A stretch of DNA of 44,068 nt from positions 1 to 44,068 of the forward strand of contig CBDHHL010000023.1 in assembly GCA_965263355.1 (NCBI GenBank), written 5' to 3'. Source of the stretch: Leptolyngbyaceae cyanobacterium. GTDB lineage: Bacteria; Cyanobacteriota; Cyanobacteriia; Phormidesmidales; Phormidesmidaceae. Within the stretch, counting starts at the first letter, position 1, and the number at the start of each line of letters is the position of its first letter. The position numbers and the translations under genes are program-made. The notes below the pieces were generated by a model that was not told the DNA's origin, did no database searches, and saw nothing but the letters and a program-made list of their open reading frames with translations. Below, piece by piece: positions 4,156 to 42,983 of this stretch.

Positions 4156-4683
4156 ATGTTCAAACAATTAGAGTTTCATTCTGGTGGCCAGACCGGAGCA
4201 GATAGAGCGGGTTTAGATGCTGCTAGGTATTGCGGATTCAAAACTGGTGGATGGGCCGCCAAAGGTTACATGATTCAAACTTGGTCAGGAGAAAATATAT
4301 CGGATTACTCACTTAAAATGTTCGGCCTCAAAGAATATCCTGAGGCTGGATATCCACCTAGGACAAAAGCAAATGTTTTTGACACAGACTTAACTGTATG
4401 GTTCGGTCGTCAAAATAGCCCAGGTGGAAGGCTCACAATAGGAACTGCAAAAAAACTAGAAAAATTATTGCTAATAAATCCTAGCGCCGAAGAATTAGCC
4501 GATTATATTTGTAGTAATGATGCTGAGAGGGTGAACATCGCAGGTAATCGGCTTTCGGAAAAGAATCCAGATATTTATCTCAAAACATTCAAAACTTTGG
4601 TTGAATCCATGCAAATCTTAAACGGTGCTCAAGGACTACTGCCGTCTTTTGTATGGCAAACAAAATTAGATGTGCTAGACTAG
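4156..4683 (+). CDS. SLOG-superfamily 'putative molybdenum carrier' protein
   Basis: SGGQTGADRAGLDAA...TGGWAAKG...YPPRTKANV..TD...NIAGNR. Confidence 0.85.
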   Translation: MFKQLEFHSGGQTGADRAGLDAARYCGFKTGGWAAKGYMIQTWSGENISDYSLKMFGLKEYPEAGYPPRTKANVFDTDLTVWFGRQNSPGGRLTIGTAKKLEKLLLINPSAEELADYICSNDAERVNIAGNRLSEKNPDIYLKTFKTLVESMQILNGAQGLLPSFVWQTKLDVLD

Positions 4684-9047: not shown

Positions 9048-10262
9048 CTAAAGGTTCAGCCTAAGCTGCTCCCCTACTAAACGGCTAGACGGTTCAACAC
9101 ACCCTGCCGGAAGCCCGGTCTTACAAGTGCTCCCCTGTCCATTTTTATGCTGTCGTGGGCTATCTCCAGCCCCGACAAAGTTTATATTCTTGGCTGCATT
9201 GCGGTCTCTATCGTGTAGAGCGCCGCAACTAAGACAGCGTATTTCCCGTACAGAAAGGTCTAACTTCCCCCAATGAGAGCCACAGTCAGAGCAATACTGA
9301 CTGGTAGGCTCCCATCGGTCAATGACCCTCACTTCACGGCCATACATGGCTGCTTTCGCTTCCAGCATCGTCCTGAACTCTCTCCAGCCTTGCTGGGATA
9401 TTGCACGGGATAACTTACGGTTTTTCACCATACCCGATACATTCAGGTCCTCTAAGCAGATCACCTGGTTTTCTTTCACCAGCTGCGTACTGAGCTTGTG
9501 GAGGAAATCTTTACGGATATTTCGCGCCTTGGCTTTGAGCTTGGCAACACGTAACCGTGCTCGTTCTCTCCGCTTAGACCCCTTCTGCCTGCGAGACAAG
9601 ACCCGTTGCGCTTTCCTAAGCTTGCGGTCTAGCTTGCTATAGTCTGGCCCTTCTATCGGCTCTCCATAGCTAGGAAAGGCAAACACCTTTATACCTAGAT
9701 CGATACCGATAGAAGGATTTGTTACTGATTCCATGCTGGGCTCAGCTTCTACAACAAAGCTCAGGTAATAATGGTTCTGCCTATCTTTGATGACGGTTAC
9801 AGAACTTGGCTCACTGGGTAAAGGTCGAGACCATTTGGTTTTCACAGTCCCTATCTTTGCCAGGTAAACCTTATTTCCTTTGAGGGAAAAAGCGGTCTTT
9901 GCAAACCTAGCCGTTTGCTTGTTGTCTCTTTTTTTGAACCTAGGAAACTGGATGGGTTTCCCCTTTCGCTTACCCTTGCGGCTATCGAAAAAGTTCTTAA
10001 ATGCCGTCCCTAGATCAATCAATGATTGCTGTAGGGGTACAGCAGAAACATCAGACAACCAGCTACGCTCAACAGTCTTTTTGGCTTGGGTGATACATTG
10101 CTTCGATAGCTCTGTACTCGTCGGCCATTTCTCACCCCTAGGAATGGCCTTGATGGTTGCCAGTGCATCATTCCAAACGACACGGGTGCAACCGAACAAC
10201 TTTGCTAAGTTGGCCTGTTGCTCCTTATTTGGATAGATTCTATACTGGTACCTGAGTTTCAT
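9048..10262 (-). CDS. tnpB: RNA-guided endonuclease TnpB
   Basis: YQYRIYP HTH, GIDLG, LEDLNV, CxxC..CxxC, DRDRNAA; RuvC triad intact. Confidence 0.95.
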   Translation of the reverse strand: MKLRYQYRIYPNKEQQANLAKLFGCTRVVWNDALATIKAIPRGEKWPTSTELSKQCITQAKKTVERSWLSDVSAVPLQQSLIDLGTAFKNFFDSRKGKRKGKPIQFPRFKKRDNKQTARFAKTAFSLKGNKVYLAKIGTVKTKWSRPLPSEPSSVTVIKDRQNHYYLSFVVEAEPSMESVTNPSIGIDLGIKVFAFPSYGEPIEGPDYSKLDRKLRKAQRVLSRRQKGSKRRERARLRVAKLKAKARNIRKDFLHKLSTQLVKENQVICLEDLNVSGMVKNRKLSRAISQQGWREFRTMLEAKAAMYGREVRVIDRWEPTSQYCSDCGSHWGKLDLSVREIRCLSCGALHDRDRNAAKNINFVGAGDSPRQHKNGQGSTCKTGLPAGCVEPSSRLVGEQLRLNL

Positions 10263-10290
10263 TATTTAAGTATACTTGGTCTGAAGCAAA

Positions 10291-10692
10291 ATGGGTGCAG
10301 ATTTAAGGCGGGAAAGGCATAGCGTCACTAACCTGTTAATTCATTTGGTCTGTGTCACTAAATATCGTAGAAAAGTCCTAACTCCCGAAGGGCTTGATAC
10401 CATAGAAGCCGCGTTTAACTCGGTCGCTAAAAGCCTTAACTTTCAGGTGACAGAGTTTAATGGTGAATCCGACCATGTACACGCCCTGATTGAGTACCCA
10501 CCAAAACTGTCGGTGTCTCAACTGGTCAACTCGTTAAAAGGCGTCTCTAGTAGGCGGTATGGGCAAGCTGGGCACCTTAAGCCCTACGGTAGAAAAGCTT
10601 TGTGGAGCCCTAGTTATTTTGTTAGCTCAGTAGGCGGGGCACCTCTGGATGTACTCAAAAAGTACATCCAGGAGCAAGAAAAGCCGTCCTAG
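10291..10692 (+). CDS. tnpA: IS200/IS605 Y1 transposase TnpA
   Basis: HLVCVTKYRR, DHVH (HUH), LWSPSYF, YIQEQ. Confidence 0.95.
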   Translation: MGADLRRERHSVTNLLIHLVCVTKYRRKVLTPEGLDTIEAAFNSVAKSLNFQVTEFNGESDHVHALIEYPPKLSVSQLVNSLKGVSSRRYGQAGHLKPYGRKALWSPSYFVSSVGGAPLDVLKKYIQEQEKPS

Positions 10693-17653: not shown

Positions 17654-19903
17654 ATGAGTGGATTAGGAGCTGATTTTGGATGGAAATCAATACGCAAGTT
17701 TATTCCCGAGCTGCCCGAGCAGCACTATCTAGAAGCCCATCACGTTAGTCATTTAGCAGAAAGCGGTATAAGTCCCAGTGCTGCCCTAGTAGCTGGCATA
17801 TTTAGCGCTGATGCTGCCTTAGCTAGAACGCTCACAGGCCACGGTAGAGCCGGTCTGATATTCACTTATTTCACGATTGACGGCAAAGATGTATATCGAT
17901 GGGGGGATGATAGCAGGCCATTTTTTAGACTCAGGCCAGACAACCCGCCAAGCCCAAAATGCACATATCTGTCCCCAAAAGGGGCGCCCCCACGGATTTA
18001 TTTTCCGAGAGTGGCTAACAAAGTCGATTTTACTAAGCTTTCAGGCCTTAATCTAGCCTTAACAGAAGGCGAGAAAAAAAGCCTACTGGCAACACTCTGT
18101 AATATTCCATGCATAGGGATTGGAGGGGTTTACAGTTACAAGACTGGCGATAGAGACGAATGGGGCAACCGTGCTTTAGGATGCCTGGTTGATGAGATTG
18201 ATCTTAGATCCGCGCAAAACTTAACCATAGTTTTTGATAGCGACATCACCCACAAACATCAGGTTGCTAGGGCCATCAAAGCATTGGCTGGAAATTTAAT
18301 AGAGGCTTATCATCAGCTCGAAATAGACGAGACATGTTCTAATGAGCGAGCGCCTACCCGAACACTAGCATTAGCTAAAAAGCTAAAATATGCACTGCTT
18401 CCAACACGGTTGAAGCTTAGTAATGAAAAAAAGACCAAAAAACTAGGCTTAGATGACGCAATTATGCTATTGGGCGAATCGCCAGTAAAGGAATTGTTAA
18501 GACATGCATTGCCATTAGTAAAATGCAAGTGGGAAGACAAATCATTAGATACTGAGTGCCTGTTTGCGGCTGAACCATTGGGAGACGATGCCCACAAAGA
18601 TACTCCTATTAATAAACAGCATCATGTTAGGGGGTTAATCAGTTGGCTATCCTTGCATGGGATTTATGCCAATATCCCTGATTATTCAAAACGTCAATAT
18701 TATCCAGAAGGTGTCTGGAAAGACGTAGGCGAGGAAGCCTGGAAATTACTTTCCGAACAAATAGCTGATGCCCAGCACTGGCTAAATAGGAAGCGTGCGA
18801 TCGCGGCGCAAGAACTTAGATTTGTAGAGAACAAGACCCGATTAAGTAAAGACCAATTTGACCAACCGCATCTACTAGGATTTATTAATGGAGTGCTGGA
18901 GCTTAATAAAAAAGAGCTTATTCCACATTCTCCTCAAAATTATATTACTCAGACATTAGGATTTTCATATGACCCTGAAGCCCAATGTATCCAATGGCTA
19001 ACCTGGCTAAATTGGATATTCGAAGATGATGAAAAGTGGCCAGAGATTATTCAAGCCCTTATTCGTTGGACGATCACGCCTAAAGAAAAAGGTCCCTATC
19101 CCATTCATATATGGCCTGTTCTAATTGGCCCAGCTGGCATCGGTAAAGGGACATTTTTAAGTGTGTTAACGCAGCTAGTAGGCGAAGGCAGTTATGCCGC
19201 CTGGAATTATCACAACGTGAATGACGCTCGCGGCATGAACAGTATGTCCGGCAAACGAGCTTGTTTTGCAATGGACCTTAAAGGCGAATTGGGCAGTCAG
19301 GCAGTTGGAAATATCAACTCAATCTGTGTCAACGAGCCTCTAGACGTAGAAGCTAAATATAAAGACAAACGAACCGAAGAGTTCAAAACTGTCTTATGGG
19401 CAGCCATGAACCAGCCGATCAAGTCCAGGGCAGCTGACCAAGAAGGACTTAGTAGGCGAGTACTATATATCCCATTTAGCCGCAAACCCGCCGAGATCGA
19501 TACTGAGCTGGCCAACAAATTAAAAACTGAGCTACCAGGAATATTTAATTGGGCTTGGGCTATCTCCCTAGATGAAGCAGTGGAAACACTAAAAACCCAC
19601 CTCAAGTCTGAGGAGAACATAGCATTACAGCAACGTCACTTGGCAGAGTCAAATACTGTCTACGAATGGATGGAACATCTAGAACTATCCGTTGCTCAAA
19701 CTCAGATAATTAGTGTCTGGTACAATCGTTATAAAGAATGGGTACTTAACACAGGCTGCAAACCATTAAAAATGAGAAATTGGAAAAAATACATCCTTGC
19801 CGCCGGGGCCGAAACTCAGAGGAAGACAGGAGAAGGCATCCCGCTAACACTACCTCCCCTAAAAGACGTTGACATTAGAAAAATGCTAGGACTATTCAAC
19901 TGA
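17654..19903 (+). CDS. phage/plasmid primase-helicase (DUF3854 Toprim + D5_N + SF3 helicase + C-terminal winged helix)
   Basis: LTEGEKK, IGIGGV, IVFDSD, GLDD; GFINGVLEL..PHSPQNYIT..YDPEA; GPAGIGKGT; ELPGIFNWA. Confidence 0.9.
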   Translation: MSGLGADFGWKSIRKFIPELPEQHYLEAHHVSHLAESGISPSAALVAGIFSADAALARTLTGHGRAGLIFTYFTIDGKDVYRWGDDSRPFFRLRPDNPPSPKCTYLSPKGAPPRIYFPRVANKVDFTKLSGLNLALTEGEKKSLLATLCNIPCIGIGGVYSYKTGDRDEWGNRALGCLVDEIDLRSAQNLTIVFDSDITHKHQVARAIKALAGNLIEAYHQLEIDETCSNERAPTRTLALAKKLKYALLPTRLKLSNEKKTKKLGLDDAIMLLGESPVKELLRHALPLVKCKWEDKSLDTECLFAAEPLGDDAHKDTPINKQHHVRGLISWLSLHGIYANIPDYSKRQYYPEGVWKDVGEEAWKLLSEQIADAQHWLNRKRAIAAQELRFVENKTRLSKDQFDQPHLLGFINGVLELNKKELIPHSPQNYITQTLGFSYDPEAQCIQWLTWLNWIFEDDEKWPEIIQALIRWTITPKEKGPYPIHIWPVLIGPAGIGKGTFLSVLTQLVGEGSYAAWNYHNVNDARGMNSMSGKRACFAMDLKGELGSQAVGNINSICVNEPLDVEAKYKDKRTEEFKTVLWAAMNQPIKSRAADQEGLSRRVLYIPFSRKPAEIDTELANKLKTELPGIFNWAWAISLDEAVETLKTHLKSEENIALQQRHLAESNTVYEWMEHLELSVAQTQIISVWYNRYKEWVLNTGCKPLKMRNWKKYILAAGAETQRKTGEGIPLTLPPLKDVDIRKMLGLFN

Positions 19904-23937: not shown

Positions 23938-24297
23938 ATGCCTCACCAATTAGAACTACCCTTAACCCGTCGTTCTAAAACCAAATGCACTGCCTCATCG
24001 GATGCCATCATCCCAGGCTTAGACGCTAGCCTATGTCGCTGTGATTATTGTCTAACTCGTTCTGATGGCATTTGGTGGGTAGATGTCGACCAACGGCTTG
24101 ACTGCCTCAATAAGAAAAAGCATAAAATCCCTTACTTAATTGAGGTATATCGTCGTCAAACCGTTGGTGTGGGCCACGACGACGATACAAAAGAAACAGA
24201 AGCTCAAAATGCGAAACGTAAGCACGCACAATGGGCCGGTCAAAAGTTCAAACAAACTAATAAATCATGTCAGCAACAACAATTACTAGACCAGTAA
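23938..24297 (+). CDS. hypothetical Cys-containing protein
   Basis: CRCDYC; in operon. Confidence 0.55.
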   Translation: MPHQLELPLTRRSKTKCTASSDAIIPGLDASLCRCDYCLTRSDGIWWVDVDQRLDCLNKKKHKIPYLIEVYRRQTVGVGHDDDTKETEAQNAKRKHAQWAGQKFKQTNKSCQQQQLLDQ

Positions 24298-25805
24298 CAG
24301 AACCAAAGTTCAGCTCTTATCCTTATCCTAAGGAGGGGGCCACAGGTGCCGAGTGGCGAGCTTGGCTAGAAGGAATGGTTGGGGATCTTTGGCATGACAT
24401 CGCAGTTGAATTAACCCCCCTATTAAATAATGTGCAAGTTGAGCGATTCCCAGTTGAATTTATCCCAACATTTGCCGAGGTGGGCGGCAGTGGTTGGTCT
24501 CGTCTTGATGAGGGCAGCTGGCAATGCATTTCCCCTGATGACCTGCCTGCAACCATGGTTCTCGATGTTGAATCCATTGAATTGCAAGCATTCACGGCAA
24601 ACGCTGATATAGACGCATGGTTGCCCTGCCTATGCATTTGCTATGGGGCCGACGGTTACTGGTACGCATGGCAAGAGCAAAACCCAATGTATTGCTGGAC
24701 GGAAACTAAGCGGCGTACTATTCCGTTCCCAACTGGTTGCATCATAATCACTCAGAACGGCGCTGCCCATGATTCGCAATTTCTTAGTAGTTCTTATGCC
24801 GAGTATGGACCAGAGCGTTGTCTATTTATAGATGTGATGGCCCTGGCAATGCTTGTCAGAGGTGTGCATAAAGAACAGCGATCGCAGTATGAGAAGTACA
24901 AGGTTGCGATCGCTAATGGTAAGCCTGCTCCCGATTGGGTAACTCAGGCATCCGACATGGATCTGGCCAGCTTAGCTAGTGACGTACTGGGAATTGAGAT
25001 TCTGAAAACAGTTGGAGGGGAAGGGCCACAGACGCTGTTTGAATATTGTGCTCAAGATGTCTGGATAACCCTTCGATTGTTTCAAGAACTATGGCCACTG
25101 GTTGCGAATATCTATTGCCCCAGTCCAGTAATTTTGTATGGCATGGCGGCAACGACTGGGCTTAGATATCCGGTTGGTGATTGGCAAGAACTTGTTTCGT
25201 ATATAGAAACTGAATACGAAAAAGCCAAAAAAATTAAGCCTAGCAAACGAGATTCTAATGATATTGCTCTAGTCAATTGGGGCAAATCACATTTGCGTAC
25301 ATTTCGCGATGGATACAGCGTTAACGGCATGACCAATATGGGCTTTAACCCTGCTCACGATGTATCAGGGATGCCCAAAAGCACCATCTGGAGTCATCAC
25401 TGGATGATTCGGCAATTTTTAATTACTGGAGTTAGTGATCAGCCGACCACTAGTTACATGCTGTTTGAAGCTAGGGTTCCGATGCCGATTATCCCAGGGA
25501 ATGCATTAGCTAAGACATTAGCCAGCCAGCCGAACATTAAAACGCATTTTGCTAAGCCCCCTGAGCCAGTGAAAGCCAACAAAAAAGCTAAGGCTGATTG
25601 GCTGCAATTAAGACCATTAACCGATGCTATGCATGTCATGATCTGCCTGATTGACTGTTTTTGTGAAGAGTACGAAATTGACGGGTTTCTTGCAATCCCA
25701 GGGCTAGAAACATTGTGGTACGCCGTCGACTCTGCTCAGGAAAAAGAATTTCAAGAATGCATCGCTAAAGCTCAAAGTTTAGTTTACAAATTGATGGCTG
25801 ATTGA
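24267..25805 (+). CDS. DNA polymerase gamma-like 3'-5' exonuclease with degenerate polymerase remnant
   Basis: GWSRL, VLDVE (ExoI), QNGAAHD (ExoII), FIDVMAL, YCAQDVW (ExoIII), CPSPVILYGM; C-term resembles Pol-gamma motif C region but reads GLETLWY. Confidence 0.8.
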   Translation: MSATTITRPVTEPKFSSYPYPKEGATGAEWRAWLEGMVGDLWHDIAVELTPLLNNVQVERFPVEFIPTFAEVGGSGWSRLDEGSWQCISPDDLPATMVLDVESIELQAFTANADIDAWLPCLCICYGADGYWYAWQEQNPMYCWTETKRRTIPFPTGCIIITQNGAAHDSQFLSSSYAEYGPERCLFIDVMALAMLVRGVHKEQRSQYEKYKVAIANGKPAPDWVTQASDMDLASLASDVLGIEILKTVGGEGPQTLFEYCAQDVWITLRLFQELWPLVANIYCPSPVILYGMAATTGLRYPVGDWQELVSYIETEYEKAKKIKPSKRDSNDIALVNWGKSHLRTFRDGYSVNGMTNMGFNPAHDVSGMPKSTIWSHHWMIRQFLITGVSDQPTTSYMLFEARVPMPIIPGNALAKTLASQPNIKTHFAKPPEPVKANKKAKADWLQLRPLTDAMHVMICLIDCFCEEYEIDGFLAIPGLETLWYAVDSAQEKEFQECIAKAQSLVYKLMAD

Positions 25806-27160: not shown

Positions 27161-27367
27161 ATGACACTAAAAGAAAAAGGCAGTGACTCCTGGTCTATTT
27201 TTCTGCCAGGTAAAGCTTACCAGGGCTGCATAGAGCTTAATTGGAATCCTGTTATCACAAGTAAGTATTGCCTTGACTTGGGGTACTCAAACCATCAGAC
27301 GTTGTATTACGGCAGTTTCGAACAGTTGTCTAAAAAGGCGGCTGAAATTCTTTGTGAGCGTACATGA
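27161..27367 (+). CDS. hypothetical protein
   Basis: AAGGA RBS then ATG 27161. Confidence 0.55.
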   Translation: MTLKEKGSDSWSIFLPGKAYQGCIELNWNPVITSKYCLDLGYSNHQTLYYGSFEQLSKKAAEILCERT

Positions 27368-27614
27368 TTGTCTTTCGGCGCTTGCTAACCCTGGCCGACT
27401 AGAGGTTATGCAAGTGCTGAAAAGACAAGGCGTGCTCACTAGCGGCGAGGTTGCGATCGCCTTAGGTGTGCATCATCCTACGGCTTCTAGGCATTTGAGG
27501 CAGTTAGAAGCTGCGGGTCTTGTGACTGGTGTAAGACGGTCGAGTTTCGTCGATTACACCAGGAATGAGCATGGCATTAGAGAGTTTATTAAACAACTAG
27601 CAGAGGAATTGTAA
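27354..27614 (+). CDS. ArsR/SmtB-family HTH regulator
   Basis: ALANPGRLEVM...EVAIALGVHHPTASRHLRQLEAAGLV..RRSSFVDY. Confidence 0.85.
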   Translation: MSVHDCLSALANPGRLEVMQVLKRQGVLTSGEVAIALGVHHPTASRHLRQLEAAGLVTGVRRSSFVDYTRNEHGIREFIKQLAEEL

Positions 27615-27937
27615 TGAAAAACGAATGTATTGATCTGGCTGATAAGTTGCGTCAAATCAGATTAGATGTTTTAGCGACATCTAATTTAATTGCTGGCATT
27701 AATAAAGCGATGTCACTAAAGCTTACTGAATTAAGCCAGGAAGTTAATAGTGATAAAACGTTAAAAAATGCAGACGCTCGCAAAGCTGCATTAAGCCATC
27801 TAACAAGCACAAATGAAGAGTATATCAATTTCGACGCTGAATTGTGTCAAAAAAATAACGAAAAAGCTCTTCTAGAAATTGAAAAACAACATCTTTCAGA
27901 TCTACTGAAAATACATTTGGCTTTTTCTGATCAGTAA
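27614..27937 (+). CDS. coiled-coil hypothetical protein
   Basis: TAATG overlap with upstream gene; DKTLKNADARKA. Confidence 0.65.
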   Translation: MKNECIDLADKLRQIRLDVLATSNLIAGINKAMSLKLTELSQEVNSDKTLKNADARKAALSHLTSTNEEYINFDAELCQKNNEKALLEIEKQHLSDLLKIHLAFSDQ

Positions 27938-28207
27938 AACGAATAGGAGTTGTAGTAGTGGATCAAGTTACATATTTTCAGTCTGAAGACGGTTTTTGGA
28001 CTTGGAAGACAAAGGTTTTAGTATCTGACCGATGTTTCGCGACTCACGAAGAAGCGATCGACGATTATCAACAACAAAAGGAGTTAGTAGCATGTTAAGT
28101 CTTTTTCTGCAGATAGGGATCGTAATTTTGGTCGCATCCCTTGTATTAACTGCTTTGTATATTGCTCTTTGGCCAAGGATTGATGTTTATTGCGAGGAAG
28201 ATGACCG

Positions 28208-28393
28208 ATGAATACTTCAAAGATTTTGCGAGTGGTTGAAATTAATGGCAATAACACTGTGCTTGAAGATATAACAATTATTTCAACTGAGCATTTCGCA
28301 AGCTTGTGCAGCATTCCTCAAGTAGGCAAGTCATACTTTATTACCATAAATGATTTGAATGTGGTTGTAGATATTCAGGAAGTAACAGAATAA
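28208..28393 (+). CDS. hypothetical protein
   Basis: GAGGA RBS, 61 aa. Confidence 0.45.
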   Translation: MNTSKILRVVEINGNNTVLEDITIISTEHFASLCSIPQVGKSYFITINDLNVVVDIQEVTE

Positions 28394-28423
28394 CCTTAGT
28401 CGCTGGGCTCAATGCCCAGCATT

Positions 28424-28519
28424 GCGCTCTTAGTTCAATTGGTAGAACACCCGCGATCGCCTGATTCTAGATTAAGGCATCAACACGGGAGGTTGTAGGT
28501 TCAAATCCTGCAGAGCGCT
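28424..28519 (+). tRNA. tRNA-like RNA (tRNA-Trp-like body) with ~23 extra nt in the anticodon arm; CTA at arm tip
   Basis: acceptor GCGCTCT/AGAGCGC, D-arm GTTCAATTGGTAGAAC, stem CCCG/CGGG, variable AGGTT, T-arm GTAGG-TTCAAAT-CCTGC; no encoded CCA. Confidence 0.8.
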
Positions 28520-28574
28520 TTCTCTGAAAAAGGAGAAATTGACAATAGACCAGTTTTAGAAATTGGAGTTGATT

Positions 28575-28775
28575 ATGGCGATTCAGGCATGGCAACCAAA
28601 AGAAAGAAGGCCAATTAATAAAAAGCTTTTGACGGCTACTAGGCCGACCCTGCCGACAGGGTTAAGCAAGCAAGAAAAAATTGATTTGTTGATGCCTGAT
28701 TTAGTTGATCAACTTCAAGGCGTTGATGATGAGACAAAAATGAAAATCTTGCAAGCGTTAAATAACCATGGCTAA
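28575..28775 (+). CDS. hypothetical protein
   Basis: GGAG RBS then MAIQAW. Confidence 0.55.
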   Translation: MAIQAWQPKERRPINKKLLTATRPTLPTGLSKQEKIDLLMPDLVDQLQGVDDETKMKILQALNNHG

Positions 28776-29110: not shown

Positions 29111-29245
29111 ATGAAGCAGAAGCTGCAGACGTTCAAGTTCAAAATAAATAATGGTCCAACGGTTGAATACGTTTACCAAGATTATGATCAAGCATTGAGA
29201 GAGGCAAAAGCCGATAATCCAGGGGCGACGGTGACTGTGGTTTGA
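29111..29245 (+). CDS. small hypothetical protein
   Basis: MKQKLQTF...ADNPGATVTVV; its 3' end is duplicated downstream. Confidence 0.45.
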   Translation: MKQKLQTFKFKINNGPTVEYVYQDYDQALREAKADNPGATVTVV

Positions 29246-29333
29246 AATCTTCCCATGTACGCGTGGGTTTGTCTCCAGGTGCAACAGTGACTGTGGTGAG
29301 TAAGATTTGAAATCTTCCCATGTACGCGTGGGT
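29218..29333 (+). repeat. tandem duplication containing 28-bp perfect repeat with palindromic core
   Basis: TTTGAAATCTTCCCATGTACGCGTGGGT at 29241-29268 and 29306-29333; preceding 24 bp also duplicated. Confidence 0.9.
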
Positions 29334-29372: not shown

Positions 29373-29401
29373 TTGACACCCATGTGCACATGGGATATTA
29401 T
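29373..29401 (+). promoter_or_regulatory. consensus promoter with perfect 16-bp operator palindrome in the spacer
   Basis: TTGACA-CCCATGTGCACATGGG-A-TATTAT. Confidence 0.85.
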
Positions 29402-31666: not shown

Positions 31667-33056
31667 ATGAAGCTCCCCCACCTTAAAGAGGATGGGGGTG
31701 TCTTATGCTAACTTGAGGTTATCCCTAACCCACAGGTCACATAAGCAAGCCCAGCTTCCGGGCTTCCGTCTAGAACTTTTGCTAGAGCGGAACTCACGAT
31801 CCTTTCGGTCAGTGAGCTTAAGAATTCCTCTAGCTGCGATGTTTTGACTCCCATTGAGGTCGCAGTTATACCGCTTGCCAGAAGAAAATTTTGCTAAAGC
31901 GTAGTTTTTAGAGTCACGCTTCACGACTCCAGAGCCATCATAAGCAAGCTTCGAAGTGTAGGCGGCAACGATATCTATGACTTTGCCACCAAGTTCCTTC
32001 CACTTCATTTCGGTATAATCGCGAATCTTGCTTTTGAGCCATCCGTGGAACCGCTGACGGAGGTTAGAGCGCTTTTTGCCGCCCTTAGGTTTCCATCCTT
32101 TTAAGTTCTCAAAGACAATAGCTTCAGAGTTGTGGTCTTTGGCTATGTTAACTATTCGCCTAGAAACGATGTGGCCAATCTGGGTGTTGATGTTCCGACA
32201 TTTACGATAGGTGTTAGAGCAAAATCCTTTATGGAGTTTGCCGCCTTTCCCCATCGTCTTGTTGGCTCTCATTGATACAGACTTTAGGCGTTTGTCACGA
32301 CGGTCTATGTCTCTTCCAGGGTGAATAAATTCACGATAGATTACAGTACCGCAATGGGTTACGACTGAAACTGTAGCTGTAGTATTTATTCCAAGGTCTA
32401 CAGCAACCACATTTTTGTCAGGGTTCCGCTTTACTGGCTTGCAATGAAACGGAACCGATAAATGACATGACTTAGCATTGAGAATGAGTGACGGTGACAG
32501 CATTTTGTTACCTGCTATCTCATGGCGATCCCTAAGCCCTGTGATTTGAACCATCGTCCAAACCCAATCAGACCCGGTGAACACCTTGATCTCAACCTTG
32601 TCTAAGCCATGCAGCTTGTAGCACTGCCCTTTGTGCAGCGCTGGATAGCACCCAGCATCAGGGTTTAGCAATGGGGGTTTAGCATCTCGACGTTTGCGAG
32701 ATTGCCCGCAGTGCCAGTCACGATACCGGGTCATGTAGCTACTAACCTGGCCAATCGCGAAAGTGATAGCGGCTCTACGGTAGTAGCTGGGGAACTTATG
32801 AAACACCCGGTTGATTTGCGGGTATTTCACGTCTGGGCGGTTGCTGGTTGCGTGCATTAGACGCTCAACCGCTGATGTTCTCTCATCTGCCGTGAGCGGT
32901 GCTAGCTCTGGCCAGTGCGTAAAGACAATACCCACTAAATACCGACACACACGACGATAGATCTTAATCGTTTCACCAAACAGCAGGCGCTGTTCAGTGG
33001 TTGGATTAAGCGTCCATTTGTCGGTACGGATGATTTTTGTGGGTTTTTTCATCTTC
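31667..33056 (-). mobile_element. tnpB-only IS200/IS605 (IS1341-type) element
   Basis: right-end hairpin CCCCCATC/GGTGGGGG then AGCTTCAT; CCAT at left junction; no tnpA; ends inferred. Confidence 0.65.
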
Positions 33057-33058
33057 AT
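31703..33058 (-). CDS. tnpB: RNA-guided endonuclease TnpB
   Basis: AVDLGIN, IVFENLK, YTSK, YNCDLNGSQNIA; Zn-finger Cys absent. Confidence 0.9.
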   Translation of the reverse strand: MKMKKPTKIIRTDKWTLNPTTEQRLLFGETIKIYRRVCRYLVGIVFTHWPELAPLTADERTSAVERLMHATSNRPDVKYPQINRVFHKFPSYYRRAAITFAIGQVSSYMTRYRDWHCGQSRKRRDAKPPLLNPDAGCYPALHKGQCYKLHGLDKVEIKVFTGSDWVWTMVQITGLRDRHEIAGNKMLSPSLILNAKSCHLSVPFHCKPVKRNPDKNVVAVDLGINTTATVSVVTHCGTVIYREFIHPGRDIDRRDKRLKSVSMRANKTMGKGGKLHKGFCSNTYRKCRNINTQIGHIVSRRIVNIAKDHNSEAIVFENLKGWKPKGGKKRSNLRQRFHGWLKSKIRDYTEMKWKELGGKVIDIVAAYTSKLAYDGSGVVKRDSKNYALAKFSSGKRYNCDLNGSQNIAARGILKLTDRKDREFRSSKSSRRKPGSWACLCDLWVRDNLKLA

Positions 33059-41528: not shown

Positions 41529-42752
41529 CTAGACAAGTCTACCGTTACAGTCTTTGGTGATTAGTTCCTGTTTCATAGCTGACCTAGCATGACTACTAGG
41601 GGTCATCACAGCTCCACAGGCCACAACGGTAGAACTTACCGCTGGAATTGGCTTATCTGGGTGCCAATTCTTGATGTTTATTGCTGCATTTAAATCTCTA
41701 TCTATTTTTGTTCCGCAATCAGGGCAATGATAGACACGTTCTTTTAGCGGCATTTTGTGCCGATGATTATTGCAGCCTGAGCAAATTTGAGAGCTAGGAA
41801 ACCAGCGATCAATAATCACTAGCTCACTTTGAAACTTCTCACACTTGTATTCAAGCTGTCTTTTGAACTCGTATAACCCAGCATCAGCAATAGCACCCGC
41901 TAACCGATGGTTCTTTAAGAATCCAGATACATTCAAGTCCTCAATCTTCACTGTGCTGTGGTTCTTAGCTAAGTGAGTAGTGAGTTTATGAATCGCATCT
42001 TTACGGATATTGGCAATACGTTGATGCAATTTAGCGAGTTTACGAACAGCTTTTTTCCGATTGCTAGAACCTTTCTGTTTACGACTTACAGACCGCTGCA
42101 ACCGTTTTAACTGCTTAAGGTGCTTACGGTAAGCTTTCGGGTTTTCAGCCTCAGTGCCATCGCTTAGGACGGCTAAAGACTTTAACCCTACATCCACACC
42201 AACATCGGGTCTATCGCTAGCGACTGTAGGTTGTTCAACCTCAACCTTGATAGCAATAAACCAGTCATCAGCAGCACGGCTGATAGTGCAATTATGGGTA
42301 GCTGCTATAGGCAACTCCTCAGACAGCTTTATCCAACCGATAGTAGGCAGCTTTACCCGCTTACCGTCAGTGCAAATCTTAGGCTTAGCTTTAGTTCCAG
42401 ATTCAAGGTAAAAGCTATCTTTAACGCCTTTCTTCTTAAACCGTGGCTGCTTAGATGTCTTTTTGAAACACCTATCCCAAGCTTTTCTAAGGTCTTTAAG
42501 TGCCTGCTGAGGGGCATTTTTATTACTGAGGTAATACCAAGGATTATCTGATTTAACCTCAGCAACTAAACGCTTATGCAAGTCAATAGCACTAGGGACT
42601 TTAACCGACTTATCAGACTCCCGTTGCTTAAGTACATCCAAGACAACGGCATTAGCCCAGTTATAAGCGTGTCGTGCTGTGCCTGCATGTTGAGCAAACA
42701 ATGACCGCTGCTTGTTATTTGGCTCTAACCGTGTTTTGAATGAAAGAAGCAT
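41529..42752 (-). CDS. tnpB: RNA-guided endonuclease TnpB (IS607-type)
   Basis: MLLSFKTRLEPNNKQ, GVDVG, IEDLNV, CSGC..CPDC, IDRDLNAA; start refined to 42752. Confidence 0.93.
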   Translation of the reverse strand: MLLSFKTRLEPNNKQRSLFAQHAGTARHAYNWANAVVLDVLKQRESDKSVKVPSAIDLHKRLVAEVKSDNPWYYLSNKNAPQQALKDLRKAWDRCFKKTSKQPRFKKKGVKDSFYLESGTKAKPKICTDGKRVKLPTIGWIKLSEELPIAATHNCTISRAADDWFIAIKVEVEQPTVASDRPDVGVDVGLKSLAVLSDGTEAENPKAYRKHLKQLKRLQRSVSRKQKGSSNRKKAVRKLAKLHQRIANIRKDAIHKLTTHLAKNHSTVKIEDLNVSGFLKNHRLAGAIADAGLYEFKRQLEYKCEKFQSELVIIDRWFPSSQICSGCNNHRHKMPLKERVYHCPDCGTKIDRDLNAAINIKNWHPDKPIPAVSSTVVACGAVMTPSSHARSAMKQELITKDCNGRLV

Positions 42753-42809
42753 ATCGACCTTATCCGTGTTACATTTACTGGTATACCAGATAATGATGAG
42801 GCTTGACAA

Positions 42810-42983
42810 GTGCCTACAGAGAAATTTAAGCCAAATGAAAAGACTGCTTACGACAGAACACCGGTACAAGTTAAGGTATTGCCTGGTGTTAGAGAAAAAC
42901 TAAAAGCTATCCCAGGATGGCAGAATCTACTTAGGCAGAAAATCGATGAAATAATATCTGGACAGTCGGATAGTTTTGTCTAG
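42810..42983 (+). CDS. 57-aa RHH-like DNA-binding protein
   Basis: MPTEKFKPNEKTAYDRTPVQVKVLPGVREKLKAIPGWQNLLRQKIDEII...; not in ORF track. Confidence 0.65.
   Translation: MPTEKFKPNEKTAYDRTPVQVKVLPGVREKLKAIPGWQNLLRQKIDEIISGQSDSFV

Follow-up and report, generated by a model that had tools for sequence, protein, structure and literature searches.

Some RNAs with the shape of a tRNA are recognized by RNase P and RNase Z and are not normal decoders, as in the case of the pseudo-tRNA tRNA-Other of B. cereus and of mitochondrial tRNA punctuation. We know of no bacterial machinery that removes short inserts from phage tRNA genes. Inserts of this kind are described for the tRNA genes of Lak megaphages, which carry conserved "enigmatic" short introns (Devoto et al. 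2019, PMC6784885). A different type of small insertion is represented by SDR5, a 21-nt small dispersed repeat (SDR) described as inserting between the third and fourth bases of HIP1 (PMC4390886, PMC13756078, PMC5861425); in the available parts of PMC5861425, SDR repeats are reported only from Nostocaceae. No cyanophage tRNA with an extended anticodon arm appeared in the titles or abstracts searched.

During the analysis of a 44,068-nt stretch of DNA from a Leptolyngbyaceae cyanobacterium, designated here as the window, a tRNA-like gene was recognized at 28424-28519. As in the available description of the Lak introns, a phage-borne tRNA gene is interrupted at the anticodon region by a short insert with no recognized ribozyme, and the insert is kept in close relatives, which here are close variants of the same sample set only. 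For the Lak introns, the eukaryote setting of tRNAscan is described as giving a tRNA type and an anticodon, whereas no excision from 28424-28519 gives a canonical stem-loop, and removal of the insert yields no clean typed tRNA. The host of Lak is described as Prevotella, whereas the host here is a cyanobacterium and the insert abuts HIP1. The gene thus differs from the known phage tRNA genes with short non-ribozyme inserts by the link with HIP1 and by having no recoverable anticodon. It resembles SDR5, as described in the available text, in that its insert is of similar size (23 vs ~21 nt) and can be read after the GCG of a HIP1-like site with the full HIP1 regenerated, a likeness by description and not by consensus sequence. 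Like tRNA-Other and mitochondrial tRNA punctuation, to which it has no sequence relation, it is predicted to keep the parts recognized by RNase P and RNase Z.

The preferred reading, with a probability of roughly 0.45, is that this is the tRNA gene of a phage-like element, which has a Trp-type body and was disabled by a 23-nt palindromic insert at a HIP1-like site, while RNase P and RNase Z likely still excise its RNA. The body of the gene consists of the following parts:

28424..28519, + strand: tRNA-like gene, 96 nt including the discriminator T at 28519 (Rfam RF00005, minimum-energy fold)
28424..28430 with 28512-28518, + strand: acceptor stem, 7 bp, GCGCTCT / AGAGCGC (sequence, Rfam, fold)
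28433..28448, + strand: D arm, GTTC-AATTGGTA-GAAC (Rfam, fold)
28495..28511, + strand: T arm, GTAGG-TTCAAAT-CCTGC (Rfam, fold)

RF00005, the Rfam tRNA model, matches 28424-28519 on the + strand with 53.4 bits (gathering score 29, E 8.1e-09) and is covered as a whole (1-71 of 71). It is the sole Rfam match at gathering score in the 44-kb window. All stems are present, with 7 of 7 acceptor pairs, the conserved bases of the D and T loops are in place, and U8, A9, and a 5-nt variable loop (AGGTT) can be read in the sequence. The intact acceptor, D, and T arms reported in the initial annotation are therefore confirmed, as are the discriminator T and the absence of an encoded CCA. The outcome with tRNA finders is divided: the Rfam tRNA model matches, while default ARAGORN over the same 44 kb calls no tRNA. 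Default annotation misses a real tRNA-shaped gene here. A body that is real and complete, yet rejected by default ARAGORN, agrees with a disabled gene, although its freedom from decay does not. Other RNA families were rejected. ARAGORN called no tmRNA in the window, and a Rfam scan to E 10 gave YrlA (RF02553), a Y RNA-like family, only 15.3 bits of the 69 needed (E 7.3), with Hrs12 and the remaining families far under threshold. At minimum energy, the 96 nt fold into a cloverleaf whose anticodon arm is long (-32.3 kcal/mol, z -3.0, 2 of 200 shuffles as good), and this z-score says little on the extra helix because the tRNA body carries it.

The identity signals of the gene do not agree with each other. 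In a comparison with the 68-80-nt class I tRNAs among 386 ARAGORN calls in retrieved loci, an arbitrary and non-cyanobacterial set, the top three bodies were all tRNA-Trp(cca), matched at 43-44 of 56 positions; within the limits of this set, the Trp-like body proposed earlier is upheld. The 5' part, comprising the D arm, is 92-96% identical over 23-25 nt to annotated phage tRNA-Trp genes by blastn against phage records, and the 3' part resembles T arms in the tRNA-Pro and tRNA-Ile genes annotated in phages. The bacterial Trp determinants are G73 and C34-C35-A36 (Table 1, PMC9976931). Relative to canonical tRNA-Trp, the likeness thus lies in the D arm and the overall body, while 28424-28519 has no CCA in a 7-nt loop and has U73 and G1-C72, not G73. 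A bacterial tRNA-Trp identity was rejected on the T at 28519 and the missing CCA anticodon loop, the body alone being Trp-like. The acceptor end consists of U73, G1-C72, C2-G71, and G3-C70. These constitute the full acceptor part of the bacterial Gly set, which additionally includes C35-C36 (Table 1, PMC9976931); no loop shows C35-C36, and the body is not Gly-like in the ranking. The RNA thus combines a Trp-type body with non-Trp identity positions. Such a conflict between the body and the U73 and G1-C72 of its end, where bacterial Trp has G73 and CCA, is consistent with a disabled gene.

The anticodon arm carries the unusual part of the gene:

28450..28489, + strand: extended anticodon arm, CCCG (28450-28453) and CGGG (28486-28489) around 32 nt (28454-28485) (Rfam, fold)
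28453..28460, + strand: HIP1 octamer GCGATCGC, at the 5' edge of the insert (motif count)
28459..28478, + strand: 20-nt quasi-palindrome GCCTGATTCTAGATTAAGGC, core of the insert (sequence, fold)

The count of 32 nt instead of 9 between CCCG and CGGG, noted at first from the letters, is borne out by the RF00005 alignment. In the core GCCTGATTCTAGATTAAGGC, 16 of 20 positions fit the palindrome, and a direct ATC repeat borders it (28456-28458 and 28479-28481). Because ATC is present on both sides, five junctions are equivalent as the place of a 23-nt insertion, GCG^ATC being among them, and the SDR5-like junction is ambiguous by 4 nt due to the same repeat. In the preferred reading, a small palindromic insertion at a HIP1-like site most likely created the insert, read as GCG^[23 nt]ATCAAC. 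That the insert abuts HIP1 and can be read with the SDR5 junction favors this origin, while the restriction of SDR repeats to Nostocaceae in the available description counts against it. A second copy of the insert was found neither in the window (<=3 mismatches) nor in IMG/VR, and PLSDB plasmids gave 3 weak matches, none of them cyanobacterial. The dispersed copies that characterize SDR5 are thus not seen (1 copy in 44 kb, 0 in IMG/VR, 0 cyanobacterial PLSDB matches); this also speaks against the preferred reading, and mobility of the insert is not demonstrated for this reason.

In the minimum-energy fold, the arm consists of CCCG/CGGG, a 1x4 internal loop, GAU/AUC, a bulged C, GCCU/AGGC, four weak pairs, and a CUA triloop, and the extra helix, which is short and has interruptions, contains 4+3+4 Watson-Crick pairs in addition to wobbles. 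The CTA at 28467-28469 is at the tip, as described initially. The TT-CTA-GA loop drawn around it holds only in part: UU-CUA-GA is an alternative pairing of near-equal energy, ~11 pairs too far from the tRNA body, and the minimum fold closes to the triloop. The helix had been taken as a continuation of the anticodon stem whose pairing suggested selection rather than decay. The 32-nt insert folds with -7.1 kcal/mol (z -1.89, 13 of 200 shuffles as good) and the 40-nt arm with -10.8 kcal/mol (z -1.88, 8 of 200), values within reach of shuffled sequence, so the extra helix alone is not compelling and the conclusion of selection from pairing is not sustained. A hairpin matched by 13 of 200 shuffles is what is expected of an unselected small palindrome, and in this respect the preferred reading is favored.

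An antisense role of the arm was also considered and rejected. The primase gene has a 12-nt match (18045-18056) and the ORF downstream one of 11 nt (28687-28697), and both are at chance level because their alignment scores of 24 and 22 fall inside the range of 21-29 from 20 shuffles.

It is likely that the tRNA-like RNA is unable to decode codons. The features of a functional decoder, namely a 5-bp anticodon stem, a 7-nt loop, U33, and a purine at 37, are not found together. Excision of 23 nt in any placement, inspected by hand, leaves the loop GAUCAAC or CAUCAAC, with A33 and never U33 and with a C.A mismatch at 31-39. The intron mode of ARAGORN offers only tRNA-Leu(CAA), in which a 25-nt insert at 31/32 is removed to leave a 4-bp anticodon stem, U33, and C37, on a class I body that lacks the long variable arm seen in bacterial tRNA-Leu. 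A canonical decoder is not recovered by any contiguous excision, since the 23-nt cuts give A33 and the ARAGORN solution gives a 4-bp stem with C37. The statement of the initial annotation that the unprocessed arm is too long for normal decoding agrees with established tRNA geometry and with the lack of a recoverable canonical anticodon loop. These excision products, with A33 in one case and the 4-bp stem of Leu(CAA) in the other, fit a disabled gene.

The same excisions bear on the possibility that the insert is a hairpin mini-intron, removed by a double-strand RNA nuclease and an RNA ligase of the host or the phage to give a working tRNA. The Lak introns (PMC6784885), conserved and unexplained in the available description, provide a precedent, the ARAGORN product has U33 with anticodon CAA after removal of 25 nt, and the length of the insert is unchanged in natural variants. 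That product, however, combines a 4-bp stem and C37 with a Leu anticodon on a class I body, every 23-nt excision gives A33, and the helix to be cut is the short, interrupted one described above. No Rfam intron family was matched, and RNA ligase, RtcB, kinase/phosphatase, and RNase III families were unmatched among the scanned ORFs of the 44-kb window. We regard a mini-intron as distinctly improbable. The protein-spliced intron proposed initially is likewise weakened, because no contiguous excision gives a 5-bp stem with U33; the archaeal/eukaryal type at 37/38 was rejected, as the ARAGORN insert is at 31/32, there is no canonical loop, and no endonuclease family was matched among the scanned ORFs. 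A group I intron of the cyanobacterial tRNA-Leu and tRNA-fMet type, which measures ~200 nt or more, was rejected for an insert of 23-25 nt with no Rfam intron family to E 10.

Amber decoding through the CUA tip, one change from Trp CCA, is not supported by codon usage in the window. All three stop codons are in ordinary use among the ORFs >=100 aa (TGA 25, TAA 24, TAG 18). An amber or opal suppressor, or recoding, was rejected as freeing any one stop lengthens ORFs about equally. The ordinary use of stops and the unmatched RNA-repair families among the scanned ORFs are both in line with a disabled gene.

The gene is located in a 181-nt gap (28394-28574) between two small ORFs on the same strand, and the following features surround it:

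27273-27614: ArsR-type HTH gene, 0.8 kb upstream of the tRNA-like gene (family match)
28208..28393, + strand: upstream small ORF, 61 aa, no family match, absent from some sample variants (ORF list)
28402..28420, + strand: 5' hairpin GCTGGGC/GCCCAGC, 7 bp with a 5-nt loop, 3 nt before the tRNA-like gene (fold)
28575..28775, + strand: downstream small ORF, 66 aa from the ATG at 28575, with GGAG ahead of the start (ORF list)

Upstream is a replication/early module that encodes a D5-type primase-helicase, a Dda-like helicase, a KilA-N protein, a PolA-like exonuclease-domain protein, a 5'-3' exonuclease, and the ArsR-type HTH protein. The rest of the window contains a Rha/anti-repressor gene, two endolysin-type genes, DNA methylase genes, three TnpB genes, and one IS200-type TnpA gene. 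HIP1 occurs at 13 sites, where 0.30 are expected and none of 100 shuffles reaches 13. The surroundings are a phage-like replication/early region rich in HIP1, a cyanobacterial motif.

Several genes and repeats in the window deserve separate mention. The PolA-like protein (24267-25805, + strand, 512 aa) matches the exonuclease domains of family A and mitochondrial-type polymerases and no polymerase domain; a search of 5.8 billion proteins gave it only 5 relatives at E<=0.001, of which two come from cyanobacterial MAGs. The three TnpB genes (OrfB_IS605 / Cas12f-like TNB) and the IS200-type Y1 transposase gene fall within 44 kb at 9048-10692, 31703-33058, and 41529-42869, and their nearest plasmid copies are ~65% identical. 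A circularly permuted YpsA (SLOG) family protein is encoded at 4156-4683 on the + strand, beside two N6/N4 DNA methylase genes. Interleaved with a 24-nt direct repeat at 29218-29297 (88% identity, 56-nt spacing) are two GC-rich hairpins of nearly the same sequence, CCCATGTACGCGTGGG and CCCATGTGCACATGGG (29252-29267 / 29379-29394), the second of which is inside a near-consensus promoter-like site at 29373-29401.

The hairpin directly 5' of the tRNA-like gene, already seen in the initial annotation, is strongly supported: it folds with -15.7 kcal/mol (z -4.60), and none of 200 shuffles is as good. It is present in one copy in the window and no U-run follows it. The tRNA-like gene would be co-transcribed with the neighboring ORFs, because it is on the same strand as both of them and no promoter-like site lies between. 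Neither a sigma-70-like promoter nor a terminator-like site adjoins it. This co-orientation and the lack of a nearby promoter-like site accord with the preferred reading. Since the acceptor, D, and T arms are intact, RNase P and RNase Z would likely still excise the RNA. Cleavage by RNase P at G1 would leave the upstream mRNA ending in 28402-28420, a stable and protective 3' hairpin, and cleavage by RNase Z after U73 would be followed by CCA addition. This processing would yield a stable, non-decoding RNA of ~96-99 nt, whose arm length and irregular loop the ribosome would not accept.

tRNA genes are common targets of integration, which favors a reading at the level of DNA. The quasi-palindrome in a copy of a tRNA gene could be an att-like recombination site or an operator, with the ArsR-type HTH protein encoded at 27273-27614 as one candidate binder. 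The core is palindromic at 16/20 positions, and the surrounding region is a recombination hotspot among the sample variants. Yet no integrase or recombinase family was matched among the scanned ORFs of the window, both halves of the tRNA are present with 7 of 7 acceptor pairs, unlike an att remnant, and the locus is inside a row of co-oriented genes and not at the end of the element. It is highly improbable that the insert serves as such a site.

Natural variants of the gene were obtained from three DNA runs of one study that contain the stretch. The contigs of these runs represent a mosaic population of the element. The three diverged variants have 1, 3, and 5 listed differences in the 96 nt, and all of them keep the insert with no indel listed:

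First variant: 28497 A>G
Second variant: 28489 G>A, 28491 G>A, 28497 A>G (the contig differs at 5 sites over 28422-28540, three given here)
Third variant: 28458 C>A, 28462 T>G, 28473 T>C, 28489 G>A, 28503 A>G

The sites have the following positions in the fold:

28458: the bulged C of the arm
28462: U-A pair in the insert broken
28473: G.U to G-C
28489: first C-G pair of the arm broken
28491: in the variable loop
28497: A-U to G.U in the T stem
28503: purine to purine in the T loop

The arms of the variants still fold, with -9.0 to -10.8 kcal/mol. Changes number 4 in the 64 nt of the body and 3 in the 32 nt of the insert, and those in the insert comprise one that breaks a pair, one from G.U to G-C, and one at the bulge. 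These variant sites are too few to indicate constraint or covariation.

The hairpin and the tRNA-like gene form a unit that is present behind at least three upstream sequences, namely a joint at 28396, a loose end at 28401, and the form of the window itself. Joints upstream of the unit connect 27937 to 28396, with 19 other letters between, and 28213 to 28372, and the small ORFs upstream are swapped or missing in variants (27937-28571). A further joint from 28199 to 28571 hints at forms that lack the unit or have it replaced. The ORFs neighboring the gene diverge by ~8-10% among the sample variants. The keeping of the unit behind different upstream sequences may reflect retention by selection.

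This persistence counts against the preferred reading in two respects, the insert being kept without indel in three diverged variants whose arms still fold, and the unit being found behind at least three upstream sequences. Both observations, like the undecayed body, favor the reading that the RNA is a selected non-decoding tRNA mimic, which the phage would keep, with its lengthened arm, for a job off the ribosome. Candidate jobs include a sponge for a tRNA-targeting defense nuclease or a tRNA-binding enzyme, an amino-acid carrier, and a mark cut by RNase P and RNase Z that separates and stabilizes the neighboring mRNAs. The intact body, the strong hairpin directly 5', and the acceptor end equal to the bacterial Gly set are compatible with this, and the changes in the body at 28497 and 28503 are compatible with the structure. 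However, the insert hairpin is not above chance, the variant sites are too few to reveal constraint, and both 28489 G>A and 28462 T>G break pairs. Scans of 18 proteins against PADLOC and of ORFs against Pfam matched no gene for defense, for a tRNA nuclease, or for an aminoacyl transferase. The lack of a homolog outside the sample also weighs against a mimic, which we consider somewhat unlikely. A more specific form of the idea is that a cyanobacterial phage keeps a purpose-built mimic with a Trp-type body, a glycine-type acceptor, an arm longer by ~11 pairs, and an anticodon-like UUCUAGA loop, which would be excised by RNase P and RNase Z from an early transcript and act off the ribosome as a chargeable carrier or a decoy for defense nucleases that target tRNAs. 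This is quite unlikely.

The importance of the locus depends on the reading. If the gene is just a disabled one, it is a small curiosity, which would indicate that tiny HIP1-linked palindromic insertions can hit cyanobacterial phage tRNA genes, and it serves as a warning to annotators that default tRNA finders miss such a gene. Should the insert be excised, or the RNA serve a purpose, the locus would add a cyanobacterial case to the unexplained short inserts in phage tRNA genes. The locus is compact, comprising ~160 nt with the strong 5' hairpin.

No homolog of the tRNA-like gene outside the sample was found in any collection searched. The DNA pattern gave 2 loci in IMG/VR, both unrelated tRNA neighbors, and 4 loci in genome_contigs, none cyanobacterial, and the exact pattern of the 5' half gave none in IMG/VR. 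A loosened pattern over 8 of 64 parts of metagenome_contigs returned at least 118 loci, swamped by tRNAs with a long variable arm (class II). When a 129-nt query was compared by blast with 124 retrieved loci, 8 T-arm matches of 23-24 nt and nothing longer were obtained. Blastn of the 96 nt gave 16 phage records and 4 plasmid records, of which none covered >=80% (0/16 and 0/4). The neighbor proteins had no relatives in IMG/VR, and tblastn in phages and plasmids also gave none.

The plasmid tRNA clusters of Nostoc sp. C052 and Calothrix NIES-22 were considered as relatives and rejected, since their similarity is limited to the T arm. The Rfam tRNA matches in these clusters are of ordinary length (71-90 nt). 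The cluster of Nostoc sp. C052 pC052_G includes, directly after a tRNA-Trp(cca), a tRNA with the amber-reading anticodon CTA that ARAGORN labels "Pyl" (locus positions 2438-2509). The aligned gene on plasmid4 of Calothrix brevissima NIES-22 (locus positions 2415-2486) has CTT, a one-base anticodon difference from CTA.
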